Origin: Acidobacteriota bacterium
GTDB lineage: Bacteria > Acidobacteriota > UBA6911
DNA length: 64,000 nt
Assembly: GCA_963664705.1 (NCBI GenBank)
Contig: OY761556.1
Location: forward strand, 4,608,001 to 4,672,000
Direction of reading: 5' to 3'
Position numbers and translations under genes: made by a program. Below the pieces are notes generated by a model. It was not told the origin of the DNA, did no database searches, and saw only the letters and a program-made list of their open reading frames with translations. Positions 2,072-25,072 of the stretch are shown one piece after another (position 1 is the first letter of the stretch; the number at the start of each line of letters is the position of its first letter).

Positions 2072-2085
2072 AACGGGTTTCATAA

Positions 2086-2997
2086 ATGAGCTTACAGTCC
2101 GTAATCCACCCTGCTTTAGCATTGCTGATGGCACCCCTGCTCCTTGGCGTGATCAATCGCGTCAAAGCTGTCTTTGCAGGAAGGACTGGACAGCCGCTGC
2201 TTCAGGCTTATCGCGATATTGTCAAACTCCTTCGCAAGAGCGCCGTCTATAGCCATACGAGTTCATGGGTTTTTAAGGCAGGTCCAACGGTTGGACTTGC
2301 CTCCGTTCTGCTGGCGCTTGCAGTCACACCATTGGGCGGCGCCCAGGCGCTGCTGAATTTTCAGGGAGATCTCCTGCTGCTCGCCTATGTGCTGGGATTA
2401 ATGCGCTTCTTTACGGTGGCAGCCGCATTGGATACGGGATCTGCTTTTGAAGGAATGGGGGCCAGCCGCGAAGTTCAATTTTCTGCCCTGGCGGAACCCT
2501 GCCTGTTTTTATGTATGGCGGCCATCGCATGCAAGATGCAGAGTATTTCGCTCTCCACCATGATCCCTGGAATGAATCTCGGAACATGGCTCCAGGAGGG
2601 TCCTGCGCTGGCCATGATCGCGGTGGCAATGATGACGGTCCTCCTTGCGGAAAACGCCCGTATTCCGGTCGATGATCCCAATACACATCTTGAACTGACG
2701 ATGATTCACGAAGTCATGGTCTTGGACCATTCCGGGCCCGATCTGGCATTTATCCTGTATTCCTCCGCACTGAAACTCTGGGTCCTGGGAGCGCTGCTGG
2801 TCGGAATCATTCTTCCGGTTCGCACAGGAAATCTGCTGATCGACATTCCTGCGGCACTGGCGGGAATGTTGTTTATAGCAATCGTGATTGGAGTCATCGA
2901 ATCCACAACGGCCAGGCTCCGCTTACTCCATATTCCCCAGCTCCTGGTGGGAGCCGCGGTCATTGCCGTGATCGCGCTCATTCTTATCCTGAGGTGA
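2086..2997 (+). CDS. hyfC: Hydrogenase-4 component C-like subunit (NuoH/HycD family)
   Basis: GRTGQPLLQAYRDIVKLLRK, GSAFEGMGASRE, ENARIPVDDPNTHLELTMIHE. Confidence 0.9.
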   Translation: MSLQSVIHPALALLMAPLLLGVINRVKAVFAGRTGQPLLQAYRDIVKLLRKSAVYSHTSSWVFKAGPTVGLASVLLALAVTPLGGAQALLNFQGDLLLLAYVLGLMRFFTVAAALDTGSAFEGMGASREVQFSALAEPCLFLCMAAIACKMQSISLSTMIPGMNLGTWLQEGPALAMIAVAMMTVLLAENARIPVDDPNTHLELTMIHEVMVLDHSGPDLAFILYSSALKLWVLGALLVGIILPVRTGNLLIDIPAALAGMLFIAIVIGVIESTTARLRLLHIPQLLVGAAVIAVIALILILR

Positions 2998-3647
2998 TGA
3001 ATATGCATGAATGGCTGGAACTTGTAACAGTGCTGCTCTTCCTCACCAACCTGGCCATGCTCGGTCTGAGCGAATTGGGGGCCTGTGTACGCACGGTTGC
3101 CATTCAAGGAATCCTTCTGGGTGTTTTCACGCTGATTGCCCGGGAAGACGGCCTGTCTGCACGATTGCTTATCCTCAGCCTATTGAGCATTGGACTCAAA
3201 GGTTTTGTCTTCCCGTTCCTGCTGCTGCGAAGCATTCGCGAGGCCGGCGTGCGTCGCGAAGTCGAGCCATTCGTGGGTTATGTCACTTCCATCATTGCCG
3301 GCCTGGGCATGCTGGCCGCCGCAATCTGGCTATCCGGGTACATCCCGGTGCCCTTGACGGGAATGTCCTCTTTTCAGATACCGGTCGCCCTTTCGACTAT
3401 TTTCACCGGGTTGTTTCTCGTCATTAGTCGAAGAAAAGCCCTGAATCAGGTCATCGGGTATCTTGTCTTTGAAAGCGGGATCTACCTGTTCGGCATCACC
3501 GCAGTAGGAGAAATACCTTTTCTCGTCGAGTTTGGAGTTCTGCTGGACGTGTTCGTGGCGGTATTCGTAATGGGGATTGCGATGAATCATATCAATCGCG
3601 AATTTGATCATATTGATGCCGATCAGCTCAGCTCATTGAAAGGTTAG
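2997..3647 (+). CDS. hyfE: Hydrogenase-4 component E-like membrane subunit
   Basis: Hydrophobic; RRKALNQVIGYLVFESGI and VEFGVLLDV motifs; start overlaps the hyfC stop. Confidence 0.88.
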   Translation: MNMHEWLELVTVLLFLTNLAMLGLSELGACVRTVAIQGILLGVFTLIAREDGLSARLLILSLLSIGLKGFVFPFLLLRSIREAGVRREVEPFVGYVTSIIAGLGMLAAAIWLSGYIPVPLTGMSSFQIPVALSTIFTGLFLVISRRKALNQVIGYLVFESGIYLFGITAVGEIPFLVEFGVLLDVFVAVFVMGIAMNHINREFDHIDADQLSSLKG

Positions 3648-3655
3648 CTCTGGAT

Positions 3656-5134
3656 ATGGATAACGCCCTGCTGATCGGATTACTGCTTGTTGTCCCCTGC
3701 GCCGGCGGAGCCATCAGTGCATCCATGCGCAAGCCCCGTGGTATTCTCGCGGCGATGTGTACCGCCGTTGGCCTCTGGGCATTGGTGGCCGGCACCGTCA
3801 GCGGGCGCGCATTCCTTGGAGGTCCTTTCCAGGCCGCCGACGGTGCAGTCTATGTCGATGCGCTGTCTGCCTATCACCTTGGCGTAATGATAGTGGTCTT
3901 CGTCGCTGCTTCCCTGTTTGCCATCGGCTACTTCAACCGGGAACTCGATGCCGGACACATCTCCCCCAGAGGGCTGCGCCAGTTTGCCGGATTATGGTGC
4001 GGTTCTCTCGCTGCCATGACCCTGTCGCTGATTTCCAACAACCTCGGGATCATGTGGGTCGGGATTGAGGCAACAACACTGCTTACGGCTTTCCTGATCT
4101 GCATACCCCGGAAGCGGGCATCCCTGGAAGCGATGTGGAAATACCTGATGATTTGCTCGATCGGAGTGGCATTTGCCTTTCTCGGCACGCTGATCATTGC
4201 CATGTCTTCGAGTGGTATCCACATGGGGCTATCCAAAGCGCTCCTCTGGACCGAGTTACTGAATAGCGCCTCCATTCTGAATCCGAAGCTTTTGAAGCTG
4301 GGGTTCCTATGCCTTCTCGTCGGCTATGGTACAAAGGCGGGATTGGCGCCCATGCACAGCTGGTTGCCGGATGCCCACAGCCAGGCACCGGCCCCCGTTT
4401 CCGCCATGTTCTCCGGATTCATGTTGAATGCAGCGCTTTACTGCATCCTGCGGTATGTTCCGATTGTTGAAAAGGCGACGGGTCGAGTGGGCTGGAGCCT
4501 CGAGCTGCTCGCGTTGTTCGGTATCATCTCCATTCTTGTTGCTGCAGCCTTCATTGTCTTTCAGCGCGATGCAAAAAGGCTGCTCGCATATTCCAGCGTG
4601 GAACACATCGGGATCATCACCCTTGCTTTCGGACTGGGAGGCATTGGGACTTTCGCGGCGCTATTCCATACCCTGAATCACTCCATCTGTAAATCACTGG
4701 CCTTCTTCGCGACGGGAAGACTGGGACAGACCTACGGCTCTTACGACATGACGAAGATGTCCGGATCGGTTGCGGGGGCTCCCGTGTGGGGGCGCGGATT
4801 ATTCGGAAGCCTGCTCACGCTGATCGGCGTGGCACCCTTTGCAATTTTCATGAGCGAATTCCAGGTTTTGAAAGCAGCCATGGATAAACACTGGACACTC
4901 GGAGTCCTTTTGTTTTTGGGCGGAAGCGGAGTGGTGTTTGTCGGTGCGCTCCGGCACGCGATCGCAATGGCCTGGGGCAAGCCCAGCCCGGTTGCAGCAC
5001 AGGAACAGGCCGGAGTCATTGAAAAGGCCCTTGCGTTTGTGCCTTTGCTGATTCTGCTTGGCCTTGGCCTCTGGATACCCGGGCCGCTCCTTCATTTGCT
5101 GAAGCAGGCTGCATCCATCCTGGGGACATACTGA
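3656..5134 (+). CDS. hyfF: Hydrogenase-4 component F-like antiporter subunit
   Basis: WVGIEATTL, SLEAMWKY, GYGTKAGLAPMHSWLPDAHSQAP, KRLLAYSSVEH. Confidence 0.9.
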   Translation: MDNALLIGLLLVVPCAGGAISASMRKPRGILAAMCTAVGLWALVAGTVSGRAFLGGPFQAADGAVYVDALSAYHLGVMIVVFVAASLFAIGYFNRELDAGHISPRGLRQFAGLWCGSLAAMTLSLISNNLGIMWVGIEATTLLTAFLICIPRKRASLEAMWKYLMICSIGVAFAFLGTLIIAMSSSGIHMGLSKALLWTELLNSASILNPKLLKLGFLCLLVGYGTKAGLAPMHSWLPDAHSQAPAPVSAMFSGFMLNAALYCILRYVPIVEKATGRVGWSLELLALFGIISILVAAAFIVFQRDAKRLLAYSSVEHIGIITLAFGLGGIGTFAALFHTLNHSICKSLAFFATGRLGQTYGSYDMTKMSGSVAGAPVWGRGLFGSLLTLIGVAPFAIFMSEFQVLKAAMDKHWTLGVLLFLGGSGVVFVGALRHAIAMAWGKPSPVAAQEQAGVIEKALAFVPLLILLGLGLWIPGPLLHLLKQAASILGTY

Positions 5135-6642
5135 TGAACGAGCGCGCCCTTTGTGTAATTCGAAATTGTGACACGGTTCCGATCTCGAGAATCCCTGTGC
5201 TCTCCATGTCGGAGTTCAGCCGCACCGTGAAGGAAAAGATCCAGGCCGGAGAGCGGCTGTCTGCCCTTTTCGGCAGGCCCATGGAAAAAATGGGCATTCG
5301 GCTGATTGCCGTCATCGCCCGGGACGAATCCTCGACCTTATCGCTACTCTCAACCGACGCTGAGAATTCCTACCCATCCCTGACGCCCGATTGCCCCCAG
5401 GCACACTGGTTTGAACGGGAAATTGCCGAACAATGGGGCCTCATTCCGGCCGGGCATCCGTGGCTTAAGCCGATCCGTTTCCACGCACCCTACCAATCCG
5501 GATTGGCAACGGGTGCAACCGCACCTATCGGCCTGACCGATTTTTTCCAGGTCAGTGGCGCTGAAGTACATGAGGTGGCCGTTGGACCCGTTCACGCGGG
5601 AGTCATCGAGCCGGGACATTTTCGCTTTCAGTGCCATGGCGAGAATGTGTATCACCTGGAAATTTCGCTCGGCTACCAGCATCGCGGCATAGAAAAAGCT
5701 CTGATCGAAAAACCGGAAAAGCGCAGGATTCATCTGATCGAAACCACGGCCGGCGATACAACGGTAGGACATACAACCGCCTACTGCCACGCCATGGAAT
5801 CGCTGTCAGGCAACCGCGCACCCGCCAGGCCCGCTTTTCTGAGAGGCATCGCGCTCGAACTCGAGCGGCTGGCAAACCACACCGGCGATCTCGGAGCGCT
5901 TGCCGGAGACGTGGGTTATCTGCCCTCCATGTCGTACTGCGGCAGGATTCGCGGCGATTTTTTAAACATGACGGCTCTCTTTTGCGGGAATCGATTTGGT
6001 CGCGGATTGATTCGCCCTGGCGGCATCAGTGTGGAAATTGAGGAATCCCGAATTGAGGAGCTGTTGAGCCGGATCGAAAAAGCATCGGAAGACCTGTCCG
6101 GCGCGGTCGAGCTGATGTTCGAATCTCCATCGGTGCTCGCGAGATTCGAGGGAACCGGCGAGATCACGCAACAGGTCTGCAAAGAACTCGGTCTGGTGGG
6201 CCCCATGGCCCGGGCCTGCGGCGAGCGTCTGGATGTCCGACACGATTTCCCGATCTCGGTTTTCCGTTTTGCCCAAATCCCGGTTTCCACCTGGCACACG
6301 GGGGATGTCTTTTCACGGGCACTTGTTCGCTGGCTTGAGATTCAGCGATCCATTCAGTTTATTCGCGACCAACTGACCGCGATCCCGGAAGGCGCCGCCC
6401 GTATCGAAACGGGATCTCTGTCGCCGGCATCGATGGTCGTTTCGCTGGTGGAAGGCTGGCGCGGGGAGATTTGCCACATAGCGACAACGGACGATACCGG
6501 CAAACTCGTCCACTACAAGATTGTGGACCCCTCATTCCATAACTGGTTCGGGCTCGCCTTCGCGCTGCGAAACCAGCAAATCTCGGACTTCCCCCTGTGC
6601 AATAAAAGCGCAAACCTGTCGTATTGCGGACACGATCTCTGA
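5134..6642 (+). CDS. hyfG: Ehr large subunit (NuoC+NuoD/HycE-like) lacking the Ni-Fe ligands
   Basis: WFEREIAE, GPVHAGVIEPGHFRF, GYQHRGIE and EGWRGE motifs. The L1 site reads ETTAGDT and the C-terminus NKSANLSYCGHDL; neither has CxxC. Confidence 0.88.
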   Translation: MNERALCVIRNCDTVPISRIPVLSMSEFSRTVKEKIQAGERLSALFGRPMEKMGIRLIAVIARDESSTLSLLSTDAENSYPSLTPDCPQAHWFEREIAEQWGLIPAGHPWLKPIRFHAPYQSGLATGATAPIGLTDFFQVSGAEVHEVAVGPVHAGVIEPGHFRFQCHGENVYHLEISLGYQHRGIEKALIEKPEKRRIHLIETTAGDTTVGHTTAYCHAMESLSGNRAPARPAFLRGIALELERLANHTGDLGALAGDVGYLPSMSYCGRIRGDFLNMTALFCGNRFGRGLIRPGGISVEIEESRIEELLSRIEKASEDLSGAVELMFESPSVLARFEGTGEITQQVCKELGLVGPMARACGERLDVRHDFPISVFRFAQIPVSTWHTGDVFSRALVRWLEIQRSIQFIRDQLTAIPEGAARIETGSLSPASMVVSLVEGWRGEICHIATTDDTGKLVHYKIVDPSFHNWFGLAFALRNQQISDFPLCNKSANLSYCGHDL

Positions 6643-6650
6643 GGTGAATG

Positions 6651-7409
6651 ATGACCAATATCCTGAATGTGCGCGCGCACCAGAAAAAGCGCACCATCGC
6701 CTATCCCGATGCGGAACCTCAGATGCCGGATCGTTTTCGCGGCCGACCGCAGATTGAAAGATCCAGGTGCGCCGACGGCTGCTTACGATGCTCCGGAGCA
6801 TGCCCGACGGATGCCATCGCATTGGGAGCAGATGGACTGACGCTGGATCTTGGACGATGCCTTTTCTGCGGGGAATGCGCAACCGTGTGTCCGTCCGAAG
6901 CCATCACCTATACCGGGGACTATCGCCTGTCGGCGCGAAAACGCGAGGATCTGATTCTAAATAGCCGGGAAATGCCGCTGGCCGCGGCTCTTCAGCGCGA
7001 ATCGCAACGGCTGTTTGGTCGCTCGCTCAAACTGCGTGAGGTCAGCGCGGCGGGCTGCAATGCCTGTGAAGCCGATGTCAACGTGCTGAGCACTGTTGTA
7101 TTTGACCTAGGCCGTTTTGGAATTCAATTTGTAGCATCGCCTCGCCATGCGGACGGGATCCTGGTTACAGGTTGCGTAAGCCACAACATGCTCCTTGGAC
7201 TGCAGAAAACCTACGAGGCTGTTCCCGATCCGAAAATTGTAATAGCCGTCGGCGCTTGCGCGATTTCCGGGGGACCATTTATAGATCATCCCGAGATACA
7301 CAACGGCGTTGAATCCATGATTCCCGTTGATCTTTATATTCCCGGCTGCCCGCCGCACCCGATCACCATTCTGGATGGGCTGCTCCGGCTTCTCGGAAGA
7401 ATCCGATAA
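6651..7409 (+). CDS. hyfI: Ehr small subunit: 2x[4Fe-4S] ferredoxin domain fused to a NuoB/HyfI domain
   Basis: CLRCSGACP and CLFCGECATVCP, then GCNACE, ASPRHADG, GACAISGG and IPGCPP. Confidence 0.88.
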   Translation: MTNILNVRAHQKKRTIAYPDAEPQMPDRFRGRPQIERSRCADGCLRCSGACPTDAIALGADGLTLDLGRCLFCGECATVCPSEAITYTGDYRLSARKREDLILNSREMPLAAALQRESQRLFGRSLKLREVSAAGCNACEADVNVLSTVVFDLGRFGIQFVASPRHADGILVTGCVSHNMLLGLQKTYEAVPDPKIVIAVGACAISGGPFIDHPEIHNGVESMIPVDLYIPGCPPHPITILDGLLRLLGRIR

Positions 7410-7434: not shown

Positions 7435-9039
7435 CTACGCACCGCGCGCCTGGAAGGATTGAGGGTCAATCCCATATTTGGTAATGCGCAGCCGCATCAG
7501 CTTCTTGGTGATTCCGAGGGCTTGCGCAGCGCAGGCCACATTTCCACCCGCCGACCTCAGGGCATCCACGATCAGTTCCGATTCAAGCGCGGCAAGTGAG
7601 ACCTGCAGATTCCCACCATGCCTTGTATTGGTGGATTCGGCAGTCTGAATTGATGGAGGAAGCAGATGCGCATGAATGACACCGTCCGTGCTTAGAAGCA
7701 CCGCCTGGTCAATACAGCCTTCCAGTTCTCTGATATTTCCAGGCCAGTTGTAGCTCATCAACATGTCTATGGCTGACGAGGAAATCCGGCTGACGGATTT
7801 GCCGAACTTGTCGCTGGCGCGCTTGATGAAATGGTTCGCCAACTGCAGGATATCGGTTTTGCGCTCGCGCAAGGGCGGGACAAAAATGGGAAATACATTG
7901 AGTCGATAATACAGATCTTGCCTGAATTGAAAACTCCGAGTCAGGTCTTCAAGATTTTTGTCTGTCGCGGAAATAATTCTCGTGTCCGCGCGAATCGCGG
8001 TACTGCCGCCGGACCTTTCAAATTCCTTTTCCTGTAGAAATCGTAAAAGGCGGACTTGCGCAGACATCGGCAATCGGTCGACTTCATTTAGAAATAAGGT
8101 ACCCCCATCCGCCATCTCGAGCTGGCCCTTGCGTTCCCTCGCGCCAGGATGGATGCCGGACGACTGCCCGAAAAGCTCTCTTTCAATCGCGCCTTCGGAC
8201 AATGCCGCCAGGCTGATAGTGAGAAACTGTTTTGCCGCCCGAGGACTGTTCACGTGAATGGCTTCTGCCACAAGCTCCTTGCCCGCTCCGCTTTCTCCCG
8301 TAATGAACACGCTTGCCTGGCTCGAAGCGACCTGGTTCACGAGACGGCAAACTTGTCGGATTACGTGTGAATTGCCTACAATATTGGCGGGATTGAAATG
8401 ACTCAGAGCTTCGCTCCGTAATCGCGAGTTTTCTTCCTGAAGCATCCGCTCACGCTCGTTCGCTTCACGCCGTATCTCAATCGCCTGCGCAAGCAAGGGA
8501 GCAACGGTCCCCAGCAAACGCACATCGTCATCGAGGGAAGAGCCGTCCAAAAGAGAACAACCTGCGCTTACCGCGCCAATCACACCATTCCTTCCGCAGA
8601 TCGGCACGGAAATGTATGAAACGGCATCTCGCCTGTCACAGGAACCGCTTGGCGGAGCGGTCGGTTTGCCTTGAATGAGCGCCTCTTTTAAAACGCTGGC
8701 AACAATCGCGGGGACTCCGGTTTCGACAACCTTGCGCGCAATCGCGGCAGCCCACCGGTTGCCCATTCTCGATGAATCTTCCCGGGAAAATCCGTAGGTC
8801 AGATCCACCTCGATTTCACCGGTATCCGGCGTCATCAGGGTGATGGAACTGCATACCTGCCCGAAATAGTCGAAGAGCAGTGTCAGCACCGGCTGCATCA
8901 TCTCTTCCAGATTCAGGCTTCTGTTCAAAGCCTGCGAGATGTCGAACAAAAGTTGAACAAAGCGGAGCTCACGATGAATGCGAGACAGTCCGCCTTCTTT
9001 GCCGCCAAAAGTCAGATCCCCGGATATCGGTCCAGTCAT
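7435..9039 (-). CDS. NifA-like GAF-AAA+-HTH sigma54 enhancer-binding protein with degenerate motifs
   Basis: GAF N-terminus, Walker A GESGAGKE, FRQDLYYRLNV, WPGNIREL and a Fis-type HTH. The GAFTGA loop reads GIHPGA and Walker B reads LFLNEV. Confidence 0.88.
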   Translation of the reverse strand: MTGPISGDLTFGGKEGGLSRIHRELRFVQLLFDISQALNRSLNLEEMMQPVLTLLFDYFGQVCSSITLMTPDTGEIEVDLTYGFSREDSSRMGNRWAAAIARKVVETGVPAIVASVLKEALIQGKPTAPPSGSCDRRDAVSYISVPICGRNGVIGAVSAGCSLLDGSSLDDDVRLLGTVAPLLAQAIEIRREANERERMLQEENSRLRSEALSHFNPANIVGNSHVIRQVCRLVNQVASSQASVFITGESGAGKELVAEAIHVNSPRAAKQFLTISLAALSEGAIERELFGQSSGIHPGARERKGQLEMADGGTLFLNEVDRLPMSAQVRLLRFLQEKEFERSGGSTAIRADTRIISATDKNLEDLTRSFQFRQDLYYRLNVFPIFVPPLRERKTDILQLANHFIKRASDKFGKSVSRISSSAIDMLMSYNWPGNIRELEGCIDQAVLLSTDGVIHAHLLPPSIQTAESTNTRHGGNLQVSLAALESELIVDALRSAGGNVACAAQALGITKKLMRLRITKYGIDPQSFQARGA

Positions 9040-9238
9040 ATGTTCCCGTGCCGCATTCGGTTGTTTTTCACACCGATCTCCCCCGAATTCTCCTGCCCGG
9101 CATTTATCATTGCAAAGTCCGTACCAATATTGAATATTCGAATCCCTATCCCAACCGGATCAACGCATCCTGTTGATAAATATGATGAAATCCATCGCAA
9201 TCCCAGTACGGTATCTGGCAGGGTCCCGCTGCGCTGGA

Positions 9239-9283
9239 TGACTATTTTGTATTTCATTGGGCTTGAAGGATACGGATTTGTAG
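9239..9283. promoter_or_regulatory. Paired imperfect palindromic enhancer sites (ATAC-N6-GTAT type)
   Basis: TGACTATTTTGTAT (9239) and ATACGGATTTGTAG (9270), 31 bp apart, upstream of a sigma54 promoter. Confidence 0.5.
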
Positions 9284-9373
9284 GAGTGTCGCAGGAAAAG
9301 CCTTCTCTGGGAAACTGAGATAAACCGCTATCCGATCAGGGGATCTGAACAATAATCCTACCGGCTTTCCCTT

Positions 9374-9389
9374 TGGCACACATCGTGCT
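9374..9389 (+). promoter_or_regulatory. sigma54 (-24/-12) promoter
   Basis: TGGCACACATCGTGCT = GG-N10-GC, about 100 bp before the transporter start. Confidence 0.75.
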
Positions 9390-9486
9390 ATGGGATAGAG
9401 TGAGCGTTTGAGTCCGTAATATGAGGAAGCGGATCGGGTGGAATTCAGACCAAAGCTTTTCCGCCGGATACAGCAGGAGGCATTGA

Positions 9487-10776
9487 ATGAATGAAACAGC
9501 ATTTTTTCCCACCTGGAGCCTTGCGCCGTTTGTCGCTATGCTGCTTTCGATGGCCATTCTCCCGATGGTAATTCCCGGCTGGTGGAACAGCAATCGAAAC
9601 AAGGCAATCGCAAGCGTGGTGATATCGATCCCGGTCTTGGTATTGGTCCTCAGGCAAAAGCCGTCTTTGCTTGGACATGCCATGCTGGACTACCTGTCCT
9701 TCATCATCCTGCTCGGATCTCTGTTTGTAATCTCAGGCGGCATTCATATCCGTGGCGCATGGGCGGGAACGCCGATCGTAAATACCACTTTTCTTGCGGT
9801 GGGCGCGGTATTTGCAAACCTGATCGGGACAACCGGCGCCTCCATGCTGCTGATCCGCCCGTATATGCGAGCCAACCACCGTCGGCAGAAAAGATCGCAC
9901 CTCATTCTTTTCTTCATCTTCATCGTCAGCAATATCGGAGGTCTATTGACACCGCTCGGAGATCCGCCGCTGTTTTTGGGATTTCTGCGCGGAGTCCCAT
10001 TTTTCTGGACTCTGAAGCTGTTTCCCCAATGGGCCTGCGCCGTTGGAATATTGCTGGTTGTGTTCAATTTCATTGATCAGTACATTTTCAATAAAGAGGA
10101 TCTTGAAACCCCGGGCCCATTGGTTGAGGATGTGATGCCCCGTAGACATGTCCACATCGATGGAGCGCAAAACCTGCTGTATCTTCTGGGAGTCATGGCG
10201 GCCGCGCCGCTTAGCAGTTATTTCGGCTGGCCTCGAGGTATTCAGGAAGTCATCATGATCGCCATGGCGCTGTTCTGCTGGTTTGGAACCTCCGACGCCA
10301 TCCATAAGGCGAATCACTTTCATTTTGACCCGATCACGGAAGTCGCGGCTCTGTTTCTCGGCATTTTCATCACCATGGTCCCCGCGCTGGAAGTTCTGAG
10401 CCAGAAAGCCGCCGGATGGAATCTCCATTATTCCTGGCAGTATTTCTGGCTGACGGGAGCGCTCTCCAGCGTGCTGGACAACGCTCCGACATATCTCACC
10501 TTTGCCGCTATCGCGACCGGAGCTTTTGGCGGGAGCATTGAAAACCTGGGCGCGCTTGCCACATCTATCGCCGGACAGAAATTCCTTTATGCCATTTCCT
10601 GCGGAGCCGTGTTCATGGGGGCCAATACCTATATAGGAAACGGGCCGAATCTGATGGTGCGAAGCATTGCCGAACACTCTGGAATCAAAATGCCCTCCTT
10701 TGCCGGTTACCTGCTTTATTCATGCCTGATACTGATTCCGCTGTTCCTGCTGATTTCTCTGCTGTTTTTCCGGTGA
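9487..10776 (+). CDS. Ion-transporter (IT) superfamily protein, putative Na+/H+ antiporter (CitMHS_2-like)
   Basis: Multi-TM; IGTTGASMLLIRP, SNIGGLLTPLGDPPLFLGFLRG, LDNAPTY, GANTYIGNGPN. Confidence 0.8.
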   Translation: MNETAFFPTWSLAPFVAMLLSMAILPMVIPGWWNSNRNKAIASVVISIPVLVLVLRQKPSLLGHAMLDYLSFIILLGSLFVISGGIHIRGAWAGTPIVNTTFLAVGAVFANLIGTTGASMLLIRPYMRANHRRQKRSHLILFFIFIVSNIGGLLTPLGDPPLFLGFLRGVPFFWTLKLFPQWACAVGILLVVFNFIDQYIFNKEDLETPGPLVEDVMPRRHVHIDGAQNLLYLLGVMAAAPLSSYFGWPRGIQEVIMIAMALFCWFGTSDAIHKANHFHFDPITEVAALFLGIFITMVPALEVLSQKAAGWNLHYSWQYFWLTGALSSVLDNAPTYLTFAAIATGAFGGSIENLGALATSIAGQKFLYAISCGAVFMGANTYIGNGPNLMVRSIAEHSGIKMPSFAGYLLYSCLILIPLFLLISLLFFR

Positions 10777-10848
10777 TGATGGTTTGGTCAGTGGGATTCA
10801 CGGCATATAGCCTGCCGCGAATCCCACGAAAAATGTTGCGGAAGTCTG

Positions 10849-11616
10849 CTAGAAGGTCACTCCGTAATAGAGGAAGAGATAGCGATTCCGTGATGCATTG
10901 CTGTCCGCATAGCTGTCATTACCGATGCTGTAGCCTGCATTCAACAAGCCGTTCTTCGGAAGTGTGATCGAAACTCCCGGAGTAAAATATCCGAGGTTGT
11001 TCTTTCCGCTGAACCAGTCGGCTACAAAACTGATACGTTTGGACAAAGGCTGCTCGTACCCCAAGATCGCGCCGGCGCGTCTGCCGACAAAGCTGACCGG
11101 ACCACTGCCAACATCCTGATTGGCTGACACAACTCCAAAAATACCTCCGTGAAAACGCGGACCATAATCGCTGCTCTTGACCTTTTTGCTGACCAATCCA
11201 TAGAGCATACCCCAGGAATCCTGCGAACTGCGATTGTTCAGAGGTGTATTCAGCAGCGCTCCGGCAGCCACTCCTATGCCAGCCTTCTCATTGTCGTAAA
11301 ACTTCCACTTAATGTTGGGCTGAAAATATCCATTGCTTGCCGAATCCCCGGAAGCTCTGACGTTCGTTATAGGAAAGTTCACTCCCACCTCCACATTGCC
11401 TGGAAGTCCAACCACCAGGCGTGGATTGTAAAGATAGATCCGTGAGGAGTCTGCTCCGGGTATCTGCGGCAGGAAATCGAATTCGGCATAGGCCTTGCCC
11501 TTCGACACCGTATCCGTTGTCGGAATATTGAAAATGGTCGACTGCGCCAGCACCTGACTGCTGCATGCCACCAGTATCAGAAAAATAAATTGCGCCAGCA
11601 CTCTGTATTTTTTCAC
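10849..11616 (-). CDS. Putative outer-membrane beta-barrel protein
   Basis: GTG start after an AGGAG-containing leader; signal peptide ending VLA-QST; amphipathic beta strands; C-terminal YYGVTF beta-signal. Confidence 0.7.
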   Translation of the reverse strand: MKKYRVLAQFIFLILVACSSQVLAQSTIFNIPTTDTVSKGKAYAEFDFLPQIPGADSSRIYLYNPRLVVGLPGNVEVGVNFPITNVRASGDSASNGYFQPNIKWKFYDNEKAGIGVAAGALLNTPLNNRSSQDSWGMLYGLVSKKVKSSDYGPRFHGGIFGVVSANQDVGSGPVSFVGRRAGAILGYEQPLSKRISFVADWFSGKNNLGYFTPGVSITLPKNGLLNAGYSIGNDSYADSNASRNRYLFLYYGVTF

Positions 11617-11755
11617 CGCTGAACCCGCCTTTCTCCTATTGTTTTGAAATGCAGTCACGCTCCCAGTTGCCTGAAGGAGCAACAAATTTTCTATCGGGCA
11701 AACACCCACCCGCCACCCATGATGAATCTCCCGTTCGGTGGCTGGCTATTCCCTT

Positions 11756-11771
11756 TGCAAACTGCGTTCCA
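11756..11771 (-). promoter_or_regulatory. sigma54 promoter for the beta-barrel gene
   Basis: Minus strand TGGAACGCAGTTTGCA = GG-N10-GC with TTGCA. Confidence 0.7.
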
Positions 11772-11871
11772 AAAGTGATGACTTCGCGGAATTTAGCGCT
11801 ATCTCCATATGACAAAGCACTTTACTCATGGCAATTTCCATCCGATCAACATGGAGGGCAACCGTGGATTC

Positions 11872-11915
11872 ATTCCTATATGTATAAAATGTGGAGACAA
11901 TATACATTTTTGTAT
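11872..11915. promoter_or_regulatory. Paired palindromic enhancer sites
   Basis: ATTCCTATATGTAT (11872) and perfect ATACA-TTTT-TGTAT (11902), 30 bp apart. Confidence 0.55.
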
Positions 11916-12123
11916 TATCTGGCATCTGGAGATATTTGGGAGTTCAAGGAAAATTCGAAGAGGCACCGGAACCCGTCCCGAATCGCGTCACAAGGCAGGC
12001 AACGAAGCAAAAACTCGGGCATTGCCAGGCCGGGAAATTGGTTGCACCGGCAATCCCTGCTCATAATGACACGCACAAGCCCGACATTGGCCGCATTGCC
12101 GGCGCGGAGCAGGCGCCACACTA

Positions 12124-12167
12124 TTACAATTATGTATTTATTTTTCTTATTATATACTATTACGTAT
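12124..12167. promoter_or_regulatory. Paired palindromic enhancer sites
   Basis: TTACAATTATGTAT (12124) and ATACTATTACGTAT (12154), 30 bp apart. Confidence 0.55.
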
Positions 12168-12268
12168 CAATTCACTTTCCCGCTCTCGATCACATCGAAG
12201 CGCTACACAGCACCAAATAGCGGGGCAATTTCGAACGATTCCGAGTTAATCCTCTCAATTTGAAGGTA

Positions 12269-12284
12269 TGGCATAGCATTTGCA
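12269..12284 (+). promoter_or_regulatory. sigma54 promoter for the APC transporter
   Basis: TGGCATAGCATTTGCA, near consensus. Confidence 0.8.
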
Positions 12285-12348: not shown

Positions 12349-14583
12349 ATGTCTAGTGTTTACTCTTCAAAGACAACAAAAGTCGTTGTTGCAACCACTG
12401 TAATGCTGGCCTTCATATCCTTTTGGCGGGCAGCGGCCATCGTTCTCTGTGATCTTGCGTCGTCAGCCTATTACGCGGGAGGCTTGGCAGAGGGATTCAT
12501 CGGCAAGTCTGCACCATGGTTTATCCTTGCAATTATGGTGTTTTCCACGGCAGTCAGAGCTGTCTATGTGGAAAGTTGCAGTATGTTTGTGCGCGGAGGC
12601 GTGTATCGTGTGGTCCGAGAGGCCCTGGGCCCTTCTCTCGCAAAGTTCTCCGTTTCCGCCCTTATGTTTGACTATATCCTTACCGGTCCGATCAGCGGGG
12701 TGAGCGCCGGCCTTTATCTTGCAGGACTCATTAATGAAACCGCCGATTTGATTCACACGCCCGGCATCAAGGTTTACCCCCCGTATTTTGCAGCTCTATT
12801 TACGGTCCTCATCCTTCTCTATTTCTGGCGGAAAAACATTATTGGCATGCATGAATCAAGTCAGAAAGCGTTGAGAATCATGCAGGCAACCACAATAATG
12901 GTGATCATCCTGATTTTCTGGTGCCTCGCCACCATCATCCACCGAGGGTACAATCCGGTTCCCTTTCCAAGCCTATCGACGATTCGCTTCAGCCATGATG
13001 CCGTCGGCTGGCTGAAAGGTACGATTCTGCCCAATATAACCGCCATTGCAGTCCTGATCGGATTAGGGCACGCCGTTCTCGCGATGAGCGGAGAGGAAAG
13101 CCTTGCGCAGGTAAATCGTGAGATCGCATCGCCAAAATTGAAAAATCTCAAACGCGCCGCAGTCGTCATTTTCGTATACAGCATGATGTTCACCGCACTG
13201 GTTTCCTTTTTTGCGGTCATGTTGATTCCCGATTCCGAGCGGATTGACAAATACCTGGACAATCTTATCGGCGGGCTGGCAATGAACGTCGTCGGGCCTC
13301 TTCCCCTTCGCCTGCTCTTCCACGCGTTTGTGGTTGTTATGGGAACCATCCTGCTATCCGGCGCGGTCAATACAGCCATTATCGGATCGAATGGAGTTCT
13401 GAATCGGATCGCCGAGGACAAGGTTCTACCCGACTGGTTTCGCAAACCACATCGGCAATATGGAACATCGGCCCGCATCATTACAATGATTGTCGGGTTT
13501 CAAATTGTAACGATTCTTCTCACCCGTGGAGACATTCAACTCCTTGGCGATGCATATGCCTTCGGAATAGTCTGGAGTTTTGCCATGCAAGGCCTTTCCG
13601 TTCTCGTGCTGCGCTTTAAGAAGCCCGAAGAGCCGGGATGGAAAGTTCCGCTGAATCTGAGGATCAGAGGAAGAGAATGGCCCCTGGGCTTGGGATTCAT
13701 TACATTAATTCTATTTTCCATTGCACTCGTGAATCTGGTAACCAAAAAGGTGGCCACCATCTGGGGAACGGTATTTACAGTGGGCATTTTTCTTGTCTTC
13801 GTCATCAGCGAACGCATTAACAAACGCGGCGCAGCGGGACGGCAACCCGAGCTTGAGAAATTCCGGCTTGTAACCGGCGAAACTCTGGCGCAGGAATCCA
13901 TCAACGCCCGCTCCGGCAATGTGCTCGTTGCGATCCGTAATCCCAACCAACTGGATCACCTCGAAAAAGTGCTGGTACGAACAGACACAAGGAAGATAGA
14001 TATCGTCGTCCTCACCGTGAAGAGGCTTTCAAGCCAGGGTTCGGGTGGATATGACTTGCATGCGGATCAGATTTTTTCGGACCAGGTCGCCACTCTTTTC
14101 AGCAGGGTCGTTGCGGTGGCGGAGAAAGCCGGCAAGCATGTAGAATTGTTGGTCGTGCCCGGACGAGAATACAATCGAGCCACCCTGGAAGTGGCGCAAC
14201 AATTGCAGTCAAACCTGGTGGTCATGGGGTTGTCTGCCAAAATGAGCCCGTCCGAACAGGCAAAAGCCTTTGGAGATGCATGGGAGTTGCTCCCTCCGCC
14301 ACGCCCACAACTTTCTCTTGAGATTCTCGATCAGCAAACGCAAAAGCAGCTCTTCTTTAACCTGGGACCTCATCCACCTCGACTCTGGCCTGAGGACGTT
14401 GAATTTCTGCACAGGTTATGGCGAGACATTTCCGCTTCGGGGCCTGGCCACAGGCTTCATCACAGAGATGTTGTACGCGTAGCCTTGAGGCGACTCGAGG
14501 TTGCGCTGAATTCATCCGACCGCAAGAGTATTATGGAAGAAATTGAAATGGAGACGTTTCACGAAAAAGCGGCAACAGAGTGA
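12349..14583 (+). CDS. APC-superfamily permease with a cytoplasmic USP-like C-terminal domain; KimA-like K+ transporter candidate
   Basis: About 12 TM helices; DLASSAYY, GGVY, FDYILT and SGEES motifs; soluble C-terminal region of roughly 250 aa. Confidence 0.8.
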   Translation: MSSVYSSKTTKVVVATTVMLAFISFWRAAAIVLCDLASSAYYAGGLAEGFIGKSAPWFILAIMVFSTAVRAVYVESCSMFVRGGVYRVVREALGPSLAKFSVSALMFDYILTGPISGVSAGLYLAGLINETADLIHTPGIKVYPPYFAALFTVLILLYFWRKNIIGMHESSQKALRIMQATTIMVIILIFWCLATIIHRGYNPVPFPSLSTIRFSHDAVGWLKGTILPNITAIAVLIGLGHAVLAMSGEESLAQVNREIASPKLKNLKRAAVVIFVYSMMFTALVSFFAVMLIPDSERIDKYLDNLIGGLAMNVVGPLPLRLLFHAFVVVMGTILLSGAVNTAIIGSNGVLNRIAEDKVLPDWFRKPHRQYGTSARIITMIVGFQIVTILLTRGDIQLLGDAYAFGIVWSFAMQGLSVLVLRFKKPEEPGWKVPLNLRIRGREWPLGLGFITLILFSIALVNLVTKKVATIWGTVFTVGIFLVFVISERINKRGAAGRQPELEKFRLVTGETLAQESINARSGNVLVAIRNPNQLDHLEKVLVRTDTRKIDIVVLTVKRLSSQGSGGYDLHADQIFSDQVATLFSRVVAVAEKAGKHVELLVVPGREYNRATLEVAQQLQSNLVVMGLSAKMSPSEQAKAFGDAWELLPPPRPQLSLEILDQQTQKQLFFNLGPHPPRLWPEDVEFLHRLWRDISASGPGHRLHHRDVVRVALRRLEVALNSSDRKSIMEEIEMETFHEKAATE

Positions 14584-14718: not shown

Positions 14719-15057
14719 CTATAGGGATTCATCTCCCGATTCGCCGGTCCGAATTCGAATAGTGTCGGCAAGCTCATAAATAAAGATCTTGCCATCGCCA
14801 ACTTCGCCGGTATGCGCCGCCTTCTGAATTGCTTTGGCCGCCTCTTCATACTGACTATCCGAAACACCCACCTCAAGCTTGATCTTTGAGATTAAATCCA
14901 GGTTATATTCCGAACCTCGGTACCTCTCAACCTGCCCTTTTTGCCGTCCGGCGCCGCGCACGTCGGTGATTGTCAGCCCGGCAACTCCGACATCTGCGAG
15001 AGCCTTTTTAACCTCCTCAAGCTTATGCGGCCGAATCATAGCGCAAATCATCTTCAT
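14719..15057 (-). CDS. glnB: Nitrogen regulatory protein P-II (GlnB/GlnK)
   Basis: 112 aa; IRPHKL, GRQKG, T-loop ERYRGSEY, TGEVGDGKIF, RIRTGE. Confidence 0.93.
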   Translation of the reverse strand: MKMICAMIRPHKLEEVKKALADVGVAGLTITDVRGAGRQKGQVERYRGSEYNLDLISKIKLEVGVSDSQYEEAAKAIQKAAHTGEVGDGKIFIYELADTIRIRTGESGDESL

Positions 15058-15138
15058 CGCTCATAGTCCTTTCTCCGAGTTATCAATTTAAAAGGAATTG
15101 TTCAACACTTTCTACTGGCGACATCCTTCGCCACCTTC

Positions 15139-15154
15139 TGCAAGGCGCGCGCCC
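15139..15154 (-). promoter_or_regulatory. Possible sigma54 promoter for the P-II gene
   Basis: Minus strand GGGCGCGCGCCTTGCA = GG-N10-GC with TTGCA, about 80 bp upstream of the start. Confidence 0.45.
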
Positions 15155-15184
15155 ACTGAGGCTCCCCTAGGGCTCCGGATTGAT

Positions 15185-16312
15185 TTATGCGGCATTCTTC
15201 CCCAGACGAATCACGATGCGACAGAATTCGTCATCGGTTAAGGCCCGTTTGTATGCTGCCGCCTGGGCCCTTACTTCGGTCAACAAGCTGGGAAGAAGCC
15301 GCTTGGAAAGCCGGAGGTTGCGCTGCCTTATTGCATATTCCAATTGCCTTGTGCCCGAATGGCGCCCTATAAAAATTGCCGAGCTGGAATTGCCGACATC
15401 TTCCGGTGGAAACGGCTCGTAAGTGCGTCTATCCACGGCCAGACCTGCACAGTGAATCCCCGACTCATGGTGAAAAGCAGCGGGACCCACAATCGGCTTG
15501 TTCTCCGGCACAGATCTGCCTGAGGCATGGGCCACCAGGCTGCTCAGCATGGAAAGCCGCCGCCTATCGATCCCGCAGTCTTGCCGAAGGGAGACATGCA
15601 GAGCCATAACCACTTCTTCCAGCGCTGCATTTCCCGCCCGCTCACCGATACCGTTCACTGTTACGCTAATGGCCTGGCCTCCTGCAGACAGGGCTGCAAT
15701 GCTGTTGCCAACTGCCATCCCAAGATCGTTATGGGCATGAAACTCCAAAGGCAAGTCTGATGTGGCAGCCCGAACCTCTCTTACCAGGGCATACGACTGC
15801 ATGGGATTGAGCACGCCAACCGTATCCGTAATCCGCAGCCGGCTCATTCCTGCTTCCTGAGCGGCCACCGCAAATTCCCGGAGGAACGCCATGTCGGCGC
15901 GAGACGCATCCTGTGCTCCGATCGTCATGTATCCAAATGAATCCCGGAACTCTCGCACGAGATGTTTCAGAGTACTCAGAACCCATCCCCGGCTCTTCTG
16001 CCATGCCCTCAGATGAATATCCGAAACAGGGAATGAGATATGCACGCCATGCACCCTGCAGCATTTCGCTGCCTTCAGATCTGACCTCGTTGCACGGCAC
16101 CACGCAAGCAGACGAGTCGGCAATCCCAGATCGGCAATAGCGTTGATGTTGTCGATCTCCTCCTGTCCCATGGAAGGAATTCCGACTTCCAGTTCCGGTA
16201 CTCCGGCAAGCGCCAGTTCCTTTGCCATTGCCACCTTTTCAGCACGGGAAAAGACAACCCCTGCTGCCTGTTCTCCATCACGCAGCGTTGTATCGATTAA
16301 CCATGGTTTCAT
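15185..16312 (-). CDS. nifV: Homocitrate synthase
   Basis: [40 protein letters not shown]; lies in the nif operon. Confidence 0.92.
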
Positions 16313-16353
16313 ACAAGATCCATCTATACGATCTTCACCGTACGCGGCGCAAT

Positions 16354-16656
16354 TCACGCCAGAATGTTCTTTTCGCAAATAGAGTCGTTTTCAAGAGCGT
16401 CAAGGATTTCACTCGCCAAATGCTCATCTACTTTCCCGTACCAGACATTATGCGGGTATAGGATCACCACCGGGCCCTCATCACAGGCTTTAAGACAGCC
16501 GGTGCTTGAGACCATAATGTCGTCGAGGCCCCGATCGCTAATCTCCTCCTCAAAGTATTGAAGCAGCTGAGCGGAATCCTTTTTGTGGCAGATTCCCTGG
16601 GGAGTTCCTCGCCGATAGCTGCCGCATACCAGTATGTGTTTTGAAGGCTTATTCAT
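16354..16656 (-). CDS. Thioredoxin-like [2Fe-2S] ferredoxin (nif-associated)
   Basis: [26 protein letters not shown]; AAGGAG RBS. Confidence 0.88.
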
Positions 16657-16682
16657 CTTTTCTCCTTTATTGGGGGTAGTCC

Positions 16683-17966
16683 CTAACCACAACCGGTTCC
16701 ATTGCCGCGGCAACTGATCCCCTGCAAACAGCCGGCGAAACGCCGCATCATGGTTTTCGGGATGTTCTTTTTTGAATAGATCGCGGCCAAAGCCTCCTCA
16801 ATGAAACCTTCCATTTCAATTACTTTTAAGCCGTGCGATGACAGGATCTTCTTCGGGTTCGGCCCCGCAGCTTTAACCAGCAACACCCGGCAGTCGACGA
16901 GCATCTTTGCAAGCTCAATCCATCTCTCATCTCCGCTGCCCGATTCAGGCGTGACCCGGTGTTCTTTCAGGTCAAAAACCTCGGGATTTTCAGGATTCTG
17001 CCCAAAGATCAGGACCGATGCCGCTTCACCCAGATGTTGATTGACAAGCGTGCCTTCGCAGGAAGCAACCGCAACATACGGCCGATTTCCCACACCATCC
17101 TGCCGGCCGGATTCATGCGCGTAAGCCTGAATTCGATGAAGCATCTCTGTTGTTACCGGCTCAGTCAGGAGTCCTGCCGCATCAGCGCGGCAACGGGTAC
17201 AATGATTCATCTGCGGCAGTATCTCTTTACAGGATTGCCGGATGCTTTCCGTTAGGGTGTGTTCCGGCGATGATATTCCTTGAAAGACCGCGCCTTCGAC
17301 CGGTGCCATCGGCATGCAATTCATCAAATCAACACCTAATTTTGAAACCGTCCTGGCTATTTCGATAATGTGCCCGTCGTTGATTCCCGGAATAATGATG
17401 CTGTTGACTTTCACTGTTATCCCGTGCCGTTTGAGCGCACAAATGGCTTCCAGTTGTCTTCGAAGCAGCAGGGCCCCGGCCATTTCTCCCCGCATTGGAC
17501 GCTTTCCGTCTCGAATCCAGGAATAGATTTTGGAGGCAATGATCGGATCAACCGCATTAATGGTGATCGTAACGTGACTAACCTGAAGCGATGCCAGCTC
17601 CTCGATGTAGGGTCCGATAGCCAGTCCATTGGTGGCAACACAAAGGATCATCTCCGGGAACTCGCGCCGGACCAGCCGCAGGGTCTGCATCGTCTCCTCT
17701 GGATTAGCGAAAGGATCGCCCGGCCCGGCAAGCCCAACCACCGTCAATCGGGGTTGCCGCACAACAGTTTCGCGAAGATAACGCAGAGCCTGATCGGGAG
17801 TGAGCACGGCGCTGGTAACGCCAGGATGACTCTCGTTCAGACAATCATATTTCCGATTACAGAAGTTGCATTGCATATTGCACCGAGGTGCAACCGGAAG
17901 ATGAATCCTGCCGGAACTGTGCTTGGCTGCTTCGCTAAAGCAAGGGTGTTTTGAATGGTCTATCAT
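16683..17966 (-). CDS. nifB: Nitrogenase cofactor radical-SAM protein NifB with C-terminal NifX-like domain
   Basis: HPCF, HLPVAPRCNMQCNFC, AGPGDP, CTRCRADA, VNQHLGEA. Confidence 0.95.
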   Translation of the reverse strand: MIDHSKHPCFSEAAKHSSGRIHLPVAPRCNMQCNFCNRKYDCLNESHPGVTSAVLTPDQALRYLRETVVRQPRLTVVGLAGPGDPFANPEETMQTLRLVRREFPEMILCVATNGLAIGPYIEELASLQVSHVTITINAVDPIIASKIYSWIRDGKRPMRGEMAGALLLRRQLEAICALKRHGITVKVNSIIIPGINDGHIIEIARTVSKLGVDLMNCMPMAPVEGAVFQGISSPEHTLTESIRQSCKEILPQMNHCTRCRADAAGLLTEPVTTEMLHRIQAYAHESGRQDGVGNRPYVAVASCEGTLVNQHLGEAASVLIFGQNPENPEVFDLKEHRVTPESGSGDERWIELAKMLVDCRVLLVKAAGPNPKKILSSHGLKVIEMEGFIEEALAAIYSKKNIPKTMMRRFAGCLQGISCRGNGTGCG

Positions 17967-19312
17967 AAGTAGCTATACCCGACGTTTGAGTGGTCCTGCT
18001 TTCTTTCCAGTAGTGCATTGACCAGGCGATCATATAATTCCTGGGCTCCCTGATAGCCCAGGTGGAGGATTCGCTGTCCGCCTATCCGATCGTGGATAGG
18101 AAAGCCCGCGCGTATCAATGGAATATCCAGCTTTCGGGCCAGGTGATACCCTTTACTCGATCCGATCAGGAGGTCCGGACGACAATCGGCTGCAATTTCA
18201 GCCATGTCGGCAAAATCGCAATCGCCCCGGATCATTGTTTCTGCTGGAAGATCCGGCACAGCCTTTTTCAGGGTTGGTGAGAAGATTCCACTTTTTCCAC
18301 CGCTGGCACAAAGAACGGGAACCACGCCGATCTCGCACAGGAAGGCTGTCAGGCCGATCACAAGATCTTCTTCTCCGTACACGATGGCTCGTTTTTCAAA
18401 AACATATTTGTGTCCATCGATGTAGGAATCCAATAGCCGTCCCCGTTGCTTTGCATATTTGGCCGGCATGGAACGGTCGGACACCTTCTCCAGAATTCCC
18501 ATAAACCTATCGGTCTCTTTCATTCCGATGGGCAAGCCAATCAAGTGCCGGGGAACTCCAAATTTTTCGTCGAGCACACGGCCGGCAGTGAGAACAGATT
18601 CCGTGGTCAAACCAAACTCAACCGTGGCCCGACTCTGTCCCGCGAGCACAATATCTTTCACGGGCGTGCCGCCCGGCTGAAGTTTTTCATATTTATCCCA
18701 GGTTTCCCCATCCATGCTTTCGGAATAATCCGGCAAGATCGTGAGGGGGAACTCAAAGTCCGAGAGTATCTCCTTCAATAGACGCAGATCGGCCGACGAA
18801 ACCATCCCTGGAAACAGGTTCAACCGGTTGGTTCTGATTCCTCCAGCCGCAAACCGATTTACAACCGCGCTCACTGCGGCGTGAAACCCGTCGATATGGG
18901 TGCCCCGATAGCTCGCCGTCGAAACAGAAACCAGGGGCGCCTTATCCCCATGCCGTGTGGCATAATCGAGAAGCAGCCGGGGCATATCCTCGCCAATGGT
19001 TTCGGCAAGACAGGTTGTGGCAATACCGACCATTTCCGGCCGGTATTGCCGGATCACATTGGCAACGCCCTGCTGAAAAATGTCAGAACCGCCGAAAACG
19101 GCACTCTCTTCGTGGAAGTTGGAAGAGGCAATATCGATCGGCTCACGAAAGTGGCTGATGAGATATCGCCGGATATAGGTCGCACAACCCTGTGATCCAT
19201 GAAGGAAAGGGATACAACCTTCGATTCCCCTGAACACAAGGCATGCACCAAGCGGTGTGCATAGCTTGCACGCATTCTGCGTGACGGGCATGGAAGTACG
19301 TGCCCCGGTCAT
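17963..19312 (-). CDS. nifN: FeMo-cofactor scaffold NifN
   Basis: NACKLCTPLGA, HGSQGCATY, HFREP, TTCLAETIGED, GFPIHDR; ATGA overlap with nifE. Confidence 0.9.
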   Translation of the reverse strand: MTGARTSMPVTQNACKLCTPLGACLVFRGIEGCIPFLHGSQGCATYIRRYLISHFREPIDIASSNFHEESAVFGGSDIFQQGVANVIRQYRPEMVGIATTCLAETIGEDMPRLLLDYATRHGDKAPLVSVSTASYRGTHIDGFHAAVSAVVNRFAAGGIRTNRLNLFPGMVSSADLRLLKEILSDFEFPLTILPDYSESMDGETWDKYEKLQPGGTPVKDIVLAGQSRATVEFGLTTESVLTAGRVLDEKFGVPRHLIGLPIGMKETDRFMGILEKVSDRSMPAKYAKQRGRLLDSYIDGHKYVFEKRAIVYGEEDLVIGLTAFLCEIGVVPVLCASGGKSGIFSPTLKKAVPDLPAETMIRGDCDFADMAEIAADCRPDLLIGSSKGYHLARKLDIPLIRAGFPIHDRIGGQRILHLGYQGAQELYDRLVNALLERKQDHSNVGYSYL

Positions 19313-20676: not shown

Positions 20677-20755
20677 GATTGCCCCGTACGATTCTGTGGA
20701 GCACTCCAGGCTCCCGTTCTCCCGGCGATGACTCGGTGTCCATTCTGATCATTGT

Positions 20756-22129: not shown

Positions 22130-22198
22130 ACGTATCCCTTCTTCTCTGGAATTGCATCAATTGTTCGGTGATTTAGAATGCGACCAGTCCGGATGGAA

Positions 22199-23848: not shown

Positions 23849-23904
23849 GCACCTCTGAGACCGAATTGAACAATCCGGTTTTTTTCACATATGATCCGGC
23901 CCAA

Positions 23905-24762
<858 letters not shown>

Positions 24763-24780: not shown

Positions 24781-24796
24781 TGCACGCAGCATGCCA
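24781..24796 (-). promoter_or_regulatory. sigma54 promoter of nifH
   Basis: Minus strand TGGCATGCTGCGTGCA = GG-N10-GC, about 50 bp upstream of the ATG. Confidence 0.8.
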
Positions 24797-24938: not shown

Positions 24939-25072
24939 TGACATATTTGTCACGCTCAAAAGGCGGAGGGCAGATCAAAAGAGCGTCGAGTCGATAAAAC
25001 CGCTGGAAGAGGCGCTGTAACCGGAAGTGACAATTTTGGAAGATGAATACGGCTAAAGTGAAATTTTTGTCA
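24939..25072. promoter_or_regulatory. Candidate nifH upstream activator sites (TGACA-N4-TGTCA)
   Basis: Perfect TGACATATTTGTCA (24939); TGACAATTTTGGAA (25028); TGAAATTTTTGTCA (25059). Confidence 0.5.

Follow-up and report, generated by a model that had tools for sequence, protein, structure and literature searches.

The paired 14-bp palindromes of the 64-kb stretch analysed here (the window, to which coordinates refer unless prefixed G000, the 6.9 Mb acidobacterial genome that contains it, with C1 its contig; other G and L labels denote genomes and loci of relatives) are probably the enhancer sites of one NifA-family activator (G000:6127245-6128777), which is predicted to switch on nitrogen genes under nitrogen shortage. 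The site-marked genes would most likely constitute a nitrogen-limitation regulon and not the three-gene ion-transport regulon proposed when the sites were first noticed, since the strongest sites of the genome precede nitrogen-assimilation genes, and nitrogen limitation as the signal is suggested by these targets. The original prediction, which had also held the regulon to be undescribed, was partly supported; motif and targets match the nitrogen regulon predicted for the Desulfovibrio activator DVU1949 in the accessible part of PMC4641369, and the regulon probably belongs to that kind.

Six 14-bp sites and three sigma54-type -24/-12 elements were read directly from the window at the positions originally given for them (11756 being the low end of the minus-strand element at 11757-11771), and the spacing within the pairs, claimed to be about three helical turns, was 31, 30 and 30 bp. 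The distance between the nearer site and the promoter element, measured start to start, was 104, 114 and 115 bp for pairs 1, 2 and 3, with site centres approximately 124-165 bp ahead of the expected transcription start, which is the layout of an upstream activating sequence, a GG-N10-GC element with sites in the ~80-180 bp upstream range. Related palindromes were present at all six sites, but the claimed form ATAC-N6-GTAT was exact in only two of them, with one or two mismatches in the remaining four, and the consensus from 108 sites of relatives was HTACA-W4-TGTAD. Dinucleotide shuffles of two intergenic regions yielded a pair of at least 18 bits in 0/1000 and 1/1000 trials, so the window site pairs are a real feature far above chance. 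Their proposed service to an enhancer-binding protein upstream of sigma54 promoters was supported. Pair 1 sits between two divergent sigma54 elements and is common to both.

Genes outside the window were called with a simple in-house gene caller (5656 genes), and the assignment of the genome to Acidobacteriota was suggested by the nearest named relatives of one of its conserved proteins. A loose scan allowing three mismatches gave no genome-wide spacing peak, and matrices were therefore needed, one built from the six window sites only (six-site matrix) and one from sites of relatives picked with it (108-site matrix). With the former, 16 of 5654 upstream windows reached 15 bits, training sites included, and the top seven comprised pairs before an ATP-grasp operon, nifA and glnK-amtB together with the three training pairs, followed by pairs before a third amt gene and glnA-III. 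A sigma54 element lay 103-133 bp from each of the pairs at these five loci. ATP-grasp operons are responsive to nitrogen limitation. With the 108-site matrix, each of the 11 best pairs in the genome lay ahead of one of those nitrogen genes, one of the three window promoters or the candidate regulator. The spacing was 29-31 bp in 15 of the 32 genome pairs found at 16-60 bp, including all of those with a sigma54 element 90-140 bp away (8/8), while seven weaker pairs at 28-33 bp spacing had no promoter and are unexplained or chance.

Relatives were scanned with the six-site matrix for pairs of at least 15 bits at 29-32 bp spacing in upstream windows of 1000 bp for amtB and 550 bp for other genes and background, with too-short upstream regions set aside. 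Pairs were present at 19/24 amtB loci (18/19 for in-genus loci), 14/19 glnA-III loci (three more too short), 16/27 upstream regions of the candidate regulator (two short) and all seven scorable homologue loci of the barrel gene (one short), where some were common to a divergent amtB and own pairs were also seen. Against a background of 16 of 5654 windows, conservation was found before amtB, glnA-III and the barrel gene, but not for the two remaining transporters, with none of 25 APC (two short) and none of 11 antiporter homologue upstream regions (two short) reaching 15 bits. The ATP-grasp operon had only two distant matches among 40 relatives. When the spacing was left free between 10 and 70 bp, 46 of 50 pairs of relatives fell at 29-31 bp, and site-to-promoter distances in 60 regions peaked at 102-105, 114-118 and 125-128 bp, approximately one helical turn apart, as expected if helical phase matters (best period 11.5-12 bp, a statistic inflated by the relatedness of the regions). 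Shuffle tests, conservation, spacing peak and phasing all contradict an origin of the sites as chance AT-rich sequence, which is hardly credible even given the four of six sites that depart from the claimed consensus and the featureless mismatch count.

A regulon devoted to ion homeostasis, made up of the antiporter, the barrel and the K+ transporter and tied to the Ehr operon, would agree with the KimA-like character of the APC protein, the automatic sodium:proton antiporter labels carried by the antiporter and the position of the ehr operon, which adjoins the region of the three genes. The check suggested earlier upstream of that operon revealed neither a site pair nor a sigma54 element in 602 bp, and given the strongest sites at nitrogen genes and the homologue counts above, with a weak pair only in the closest APC orthologue, this explanation is highly improbable.

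The regulator most probably reading the sites as part of a nitrogen regulon was sought among 24 activator-like proteins of the genome. The candidate has intact GAFTGA and Walker motifs, rpoN is present, and by eye gltBD lay downstream of it in G000 and a gene resembling a peptidyl-prolyl isomerase lay upstream, with no co-transcription with iorAB. A 31-bp site pair lies immediately ahead of its start codon, after a TTGACG hexamer, and the order TTGA, site, site, start was repeated in many genomes of the genus, which suggests that the regulator may repress itself. Autoregulatory sites of the DVU1949 type were accordingly counted at the regulator operon of G000 in addition to those of the 16/27 relatives. 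The regulator was found in 20/24 genus genomes and 9/16 other genomes of the class, while nifH scored over its cut-off in 1/24 genus genomes and 1/40 relatives. Homologues of the regulator adjoin amtB, PII, glnA or gltB genes in several phyla, in many cases together with pairs (the records bear names such as Blastocatellia, Verrucomicrobia and Bacteroidales), and many of the 32 scanned homologue loci had no nitrogen marker or no pair. One such homologue, directly upstream of glnA-III in L154 (G027:C64), has no readable in-frame N-terminal domain, possibly due to a frameshift, and a site pair lies between the two genes.

A sample of 120 genomes of the phylum was examined, with the regulator called at E<=1e-170 and at most 12 candidates scored per genome. 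The strict paired pattern occurred in 5/120 genomes, all five among the 16 with the regulator and none among the 104 without it (Fisher p 2e-5 across four families, in which kin are not independent), and flanked the regulator gene in 4/5; a reversed-pattern control gave 0/121.

A two-component, receiver-type activator or another protein might read the sites instead, in the manner of NtrC or GnfM in other bacteria. The genome encodes over a dozen receiver-type activators, a GlnD-like gene is present although below cut-off, and the relative G006 has sites and no regulator match. No protein of the genome passed the NtrC cut-off (TIGR01818), however, the GnfM/NtrC motif TGC-N11-GCA, as given in the accessible part of its source, was not found in the scanned regions, and even in distant families the present motif lies beside the gene of the GAF activator, making such a reader very unlikely.

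In a second alternative the regulon is again a nitrogen regulon, and it is chiefly the local NifA or the activator paralogue at 7435-9039, not the gltBD-linked activator, that reads the window copies. In a tree of 27 rows, which omitted the degenerate paralogue, three long branches and most rows of the regulator, a single clade (99.8/100) separate from proteobacterial NifA united the local NifA and the paralogue with the candidate family and iorAB-linked proteins. In G012 and G018 the paralogue has intact orthologues that lie among amt and PII genes with site pairs, the published sites of DVUA0143 overlap the motif in the accessible part of PMC4641369, and cross-reading by NifA or the paralogue is plausible. 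Set against this, the paralogue is degenerate here and occurs in 3/29 genus genomes (E<=1e-135), the nifH promoters bear a GAC/GTC variant instead, and nifH is as rare in the genus as stated above while pairs precede nearly every in-genus amtB. We regard this alternative as unlikely, though less so than a receiver-type reader, and the paralogue was dropped as a reader of the sites because it is degenerate and rare.

Several observations weigh against a single gltBD-linked activator as the reader of all sites, or against the evidence offered for it. The regulator was accompanied by no strict pattern in 11/16 phylum genomes, and its upstream regions were below threshold in 11/27 relatives. Conversely, G006 (98% complete) and G007 (93%) have site pairs yet no intact regulator match, whereas G028 has the regulator (59%), yet no pair before amtB and a single site before glnA, and glnA of G014 has no site pair. 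The 108-site matrix scan of G000 detected no pair immediately ahead of gltB, and a second amt-PII promoter (4078339) found by the mismatch scan was missing from the later matrix list. The 108-site genome scan is not fully independent because the six sites seeded that matrix, and amtB windows of 1000 bp were set against a 550 bp background, an unequal comparison. Finally, the tree did not resolve the branching order within the clade, and one-to-one orthology of the candidate with DVU1949 is putative.

If the gltBD-linked activator is nevertheless the reader, general knowledge of sigma54 activators suggests that two of its dimers would occupy the two sites on the same helix face, three turns apart, and nucleate an ATPase oligomer that loops to the sigma54 polymerase; an integration host factor consensus between sites and promoters was not found in 5/5 regions. 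At its own gene the activator would repress a sigma70-type promoter through the site pair lying over it. Nitrogen status might reach its GAF domain through PII or a metabolite, and the genome has PII proteins with Tyr51 as well as the GlnD-like gene. The pair before nifA and the TGACA-W4-TGTCA variants before nifH suggest a cascade in which the activator would induce nifA and NifA, reading the variant sites, would induce nifH.

Table 1. Sites, promoter elements and genes of the window and of the wider genome (G000)
Feature	Coordinates	Strand	Remarks
Site pair 1	9239-9252 TGACTATTTTGTAT + 9270-9283 ATACGGATTTGTAG	.	31 bp apart, read directly
Site pair 2	11872-11885 ATTCCTATATGTAT + 11902-11915 ATACATTTTTGTAT	.	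30 bp apart, read directly
Site pair 3	12124-12137 TTACAATTATGTAT + 12154-12167 ATACTATTACGTAT	.	30 bp apart, read directly
Site pair 4	26838-26851 + 26868-26881	.	30 bp apart, upstream of nifA; not in the original prediction
Sigma54-type element TGGTACGGACTTTGC	9112-9126	-	Faces degenerate activator gene; 126 bp from pair 1; not in the original prediction
Sigma54-type element TGGCACACATCGTGC	9374-9388	+	104 bp from pair 1
Sigma54-type element TGGAACGCAGTTTGC	11757-11771	-	Promoter of barrel gene
Sigma54-type element TGGCATAGCATTTGC	12269-12283	+	Promoter of APC gene
Sigma54-type element TGGCGCGGCAGTTGC	26715-26729	-	Promoter of nifA
Variant site TGACAAATATGTCA	24939-24952	.	Upstream of nifH sigma54 element 24782-24796 (-)
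Weaker variant pair	25028-25072		Upstream of nifH
ehr-like operon	92-7409		
GAF-AAA-HTH activator paralogue	7435-9039	-	42% identical to candidate regulator
PF16980 (CitMHS_2, IT superfamily) transporter	9487-10776	+	
Outer-membrane beta-barrel, FapF/COG4313-like fold	10849-11616	-	Uncharacterised
APC transporter	12349-14583	+	KimA-like by fold and residue spacing
nifH-D-K-E-N-B-fdx-nifV + PII gene	14719-24744	-	Nitrogen-fixation cluster beside the three transport genes
NifA-like activator gene	25070-26713	-	Likely start 26662
Candidate regulator, GAF-AAA-HTH	G000:6127245-6128777		Intact motifs; immediately upstream of gltB-gltD
CP-ATP-grasp/alpha-E operon	G000 6731441		Site pair + sigma54 element, six-site matrix
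glnK-amtB	G000 73023, second pair 72917		Site pair + sigma54 element, six-site matrix
Third amt with PII, frameshifted	G000 6593121, second pair 6593226		Site pair + sigma54 element, six-site matrix
Glutamine synthetase III (glnA-III)	G000 4301964		Site pair + sigma54 element, six-site matrix

In this lineage the regulon is likely to include the barrel, the KimA-like transporter and the degenerate paralogue. The functional labels first given to the three transport genes were upheld, the putative antiporter belonging to PF16980 of the IT superfamily. The barrel model (predicted local distance difference test score, pLDDT, 81) consisted almost entirely of beta strands with best matches to FapF and a COG4313 channel, and the protein had 1465 homologues, with a Pfam family in 0/120 among the matches listed. 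The APC model was of low confidence (pLDDT 59) with KimA as its best fold match (E 2.6e-14). Residues of the ion sites of KimA are D36, Y43, D117, Y118, T121, S125, T230, E233, N237 and Y377 (PMC6994465), and D35, Y42, D108, Y109, T112, S116, S247, E250, Q254 and Y403 of the APC protein keep their local spacings, which is a match of spacing and not an alignment. No sequence match to KimA was found for the APC protein, and PDB sequence searches returned nothing for it or the antiporter, with only weak matches when a profile was used. The KimA-like spacing was seen in regulated and unregulated APC copies alike, two APC paralogues in this genome having no site pair. In G014 the closest orthologue (83%) is accompanied by a sigma54 element and by a weaker pair at 30 bp spacing (9.2 + 9.8 bits), and this orthologue and an 82% remnant in G007 adjoin degenerate copies of the activator paralogue. 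An ammonium role for the APC gene is a guess prompted by the similar size of K+ and NH4+. The membership of the antiporter is doubtful: its three in-genus orthologues had no pair of their own, and in G013 the gene comes after a PII gene with pair and promoter, 260 bp upstream on the same strand.

The paralogue next to the ehr-like operon has GIHPGA in place of GAFTGA and NE in place of the Walker B DE and is therefore predicted to be unable to activate. Of its orthologues, those in G012 and G018 were intact; the copy in G007, where a stop precedes the HTH, and the one in G014, which lacks the GAF domain and has altered motifs, were damaged independently. The simpler explanation of its state is decay, and a role as brake or anti-activator is the bolder one. 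The ehr-like operon is headed, by eye, by a small gene for a DNA-binding or phosphotransferase system IIA-like protein (G000:C1:4607403-4608070) with no motif or sigma54 element upstream. In the nif region the window nitrogenase scored best as NifD/NifK, and both of the diazotrophs encountered have TGACA-W4-TGTCA variants before nifH, G013 (L169) sharing the layout, with no TGT-N10-ACA. These variant sites are likely read by the local NifA. One of them overlaps the nifA stop codon.

Other features of the genome touched on the same gene families. The third ammonium-transporter gene (G000:C1:6591615-6592860, minus strand) is split across two reading frames with its two upstream site pairs kept and a converging PII gene. 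The extra distal pairs at G000:C1:72917 and 6593226 have 29-bp spacing and lie approximately 105 bp upstream of the promoter-proximal amt pairs, and double pairs like these were also seen in relatives. A site pair with no nearby sigma54 element is located just 3' of an amt-PII operon (G000:C1:4076121). An activator with an unusual N-terminal region (G000:C1:77469-79277) lies near glnK-amtB, with a gene of opposite orientation in between. A 735-residue protein (G000:C1:6417765-6419972) contains a NifH-like domain under the nifH cut-off, and a similar protein occurs in G018.

The analysis names a likely master switch for nitrogen starvation and a predicted DNA site in this bacterial group, lends independent comparative support to the 2015 prediction for DVU1949 and, through the motif, makes a nitrogen role probable for two transport genes that lack annotation, namely a porin family and one KimA-like copy. 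What is new is the extension of the regulon type to this lineage, the fixed spacing and the odd members, namely the KimA-like K+ transporter, the uncharacterised porin and the degenerate activator paralogue. A literature search, which covered few subscription papers and no regulon databases, found neither a report of a regulon of this type in Acidobacteriota nor an experiment testing DVU1949, for which a search by name returned only the original paper. A far-reaching version, tentative and on balance unlikely, is that a one-component NifA-family activator replaces NtrB/NtrC as nitrogen master in a large part of Acidobacteriota and in several further phyla and would be the stock of nif-specific activators, having here recruited an ammonium-scavenging module (the new porin and one KimA-type K+ transporter copy for NH4+) and an ATPase-dead paralogue induced as a brake on the activator.

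DVU1949 has been described computationally (Kazakov et al. 2015, PMC4641369) as a single-component activator of a predicted nine-operon nitrogen regulon, its gene sharing a transcript with iorAB in certain genomes. As far as the accessible part of that paper goes, its regulon in the Desulfovibrionales is like the present one in the single-component sigma54 activator, targets in nitrogen metabolism and transport and predicted autoregulation, in sites of the form TTACA-W4-TGTAA, e.g. TATACAATTTTGTAAC (compared by eye, with no numerical motif comparison), and in a nif activator that is also a target, the DVUA0143 orthologues Desal_0518 and DvMF_2528 bearing DVU1949 sites 30 and 32 bp apart. The iorAB-linked activators of Desulfovibrionaceae, used as stand-ins for DVU1949, were reciprocal best hits with the candidate (46%) and had the recognition-helix stretch R-x-x-NYKVKKY in common with it. 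The two regulons differ in phylum, in the context of the regulator (gltBD/amtB/glnA here, iorAB there) and in spacing, fixed here at 29-31 bp whereas the published table gives 30, 32 and 41-53, and the barrel, KimA-like transporter and degenerate paralogue are not named in that part of the account. In the DNA-binding-domain table of the paper the first rows seem to be shifted by one relative to their labels when compared with L252, L255 and L257, such that the C-terminus of the pDV plasmid activator stands under the label DVU1949 and the end of the iorAB-linked proteins under DVU0569.

Other sigma54 activator systems share some of these features. The Rhodobacter capsulatus activator AnfA has been shown experimentally to bind two palindromic TAC-N6-GTA sites, both required for full expression, and GTAC-N6-GTAC has been suggested for VnfA (PMC7294313, in its accessible part). 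These are likewise GAF-AAA-HTH activators and TAC-N6-GTA site pairs occur here, but AnfA serves essentially one promoter, that of an alternative nitrogenase, whereas the present motif is genome-wide and also occurs where nifH was not found. Proteobacterial NifA has the domain architecture of the candidate, which nonetheless scored 517.7 bits against the 528.85 cut-off of TIGR01817 (NifA) and falls in a separate clade, and the NifA consensus TGT-N10-ACA was not found in six scanned regions. NtrB/NtrC and Geobacter GnfL/GnfM have the same role as the present system and resemble it in that the sigma54 promoters of glnK-amtB, glnB and nif genes are preceded, at 90-130 bp, by paired sites; they differ in combining a receiver-domain protein with a kinase and in their motif, according to the accessible part of PMC2995071. 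Taken with DVU1949, the comparisons with AnfA and GnfM therefore suggest a regulon that would work like that of NtrC, is not NtrC and is probably of the DVU1949 kind.

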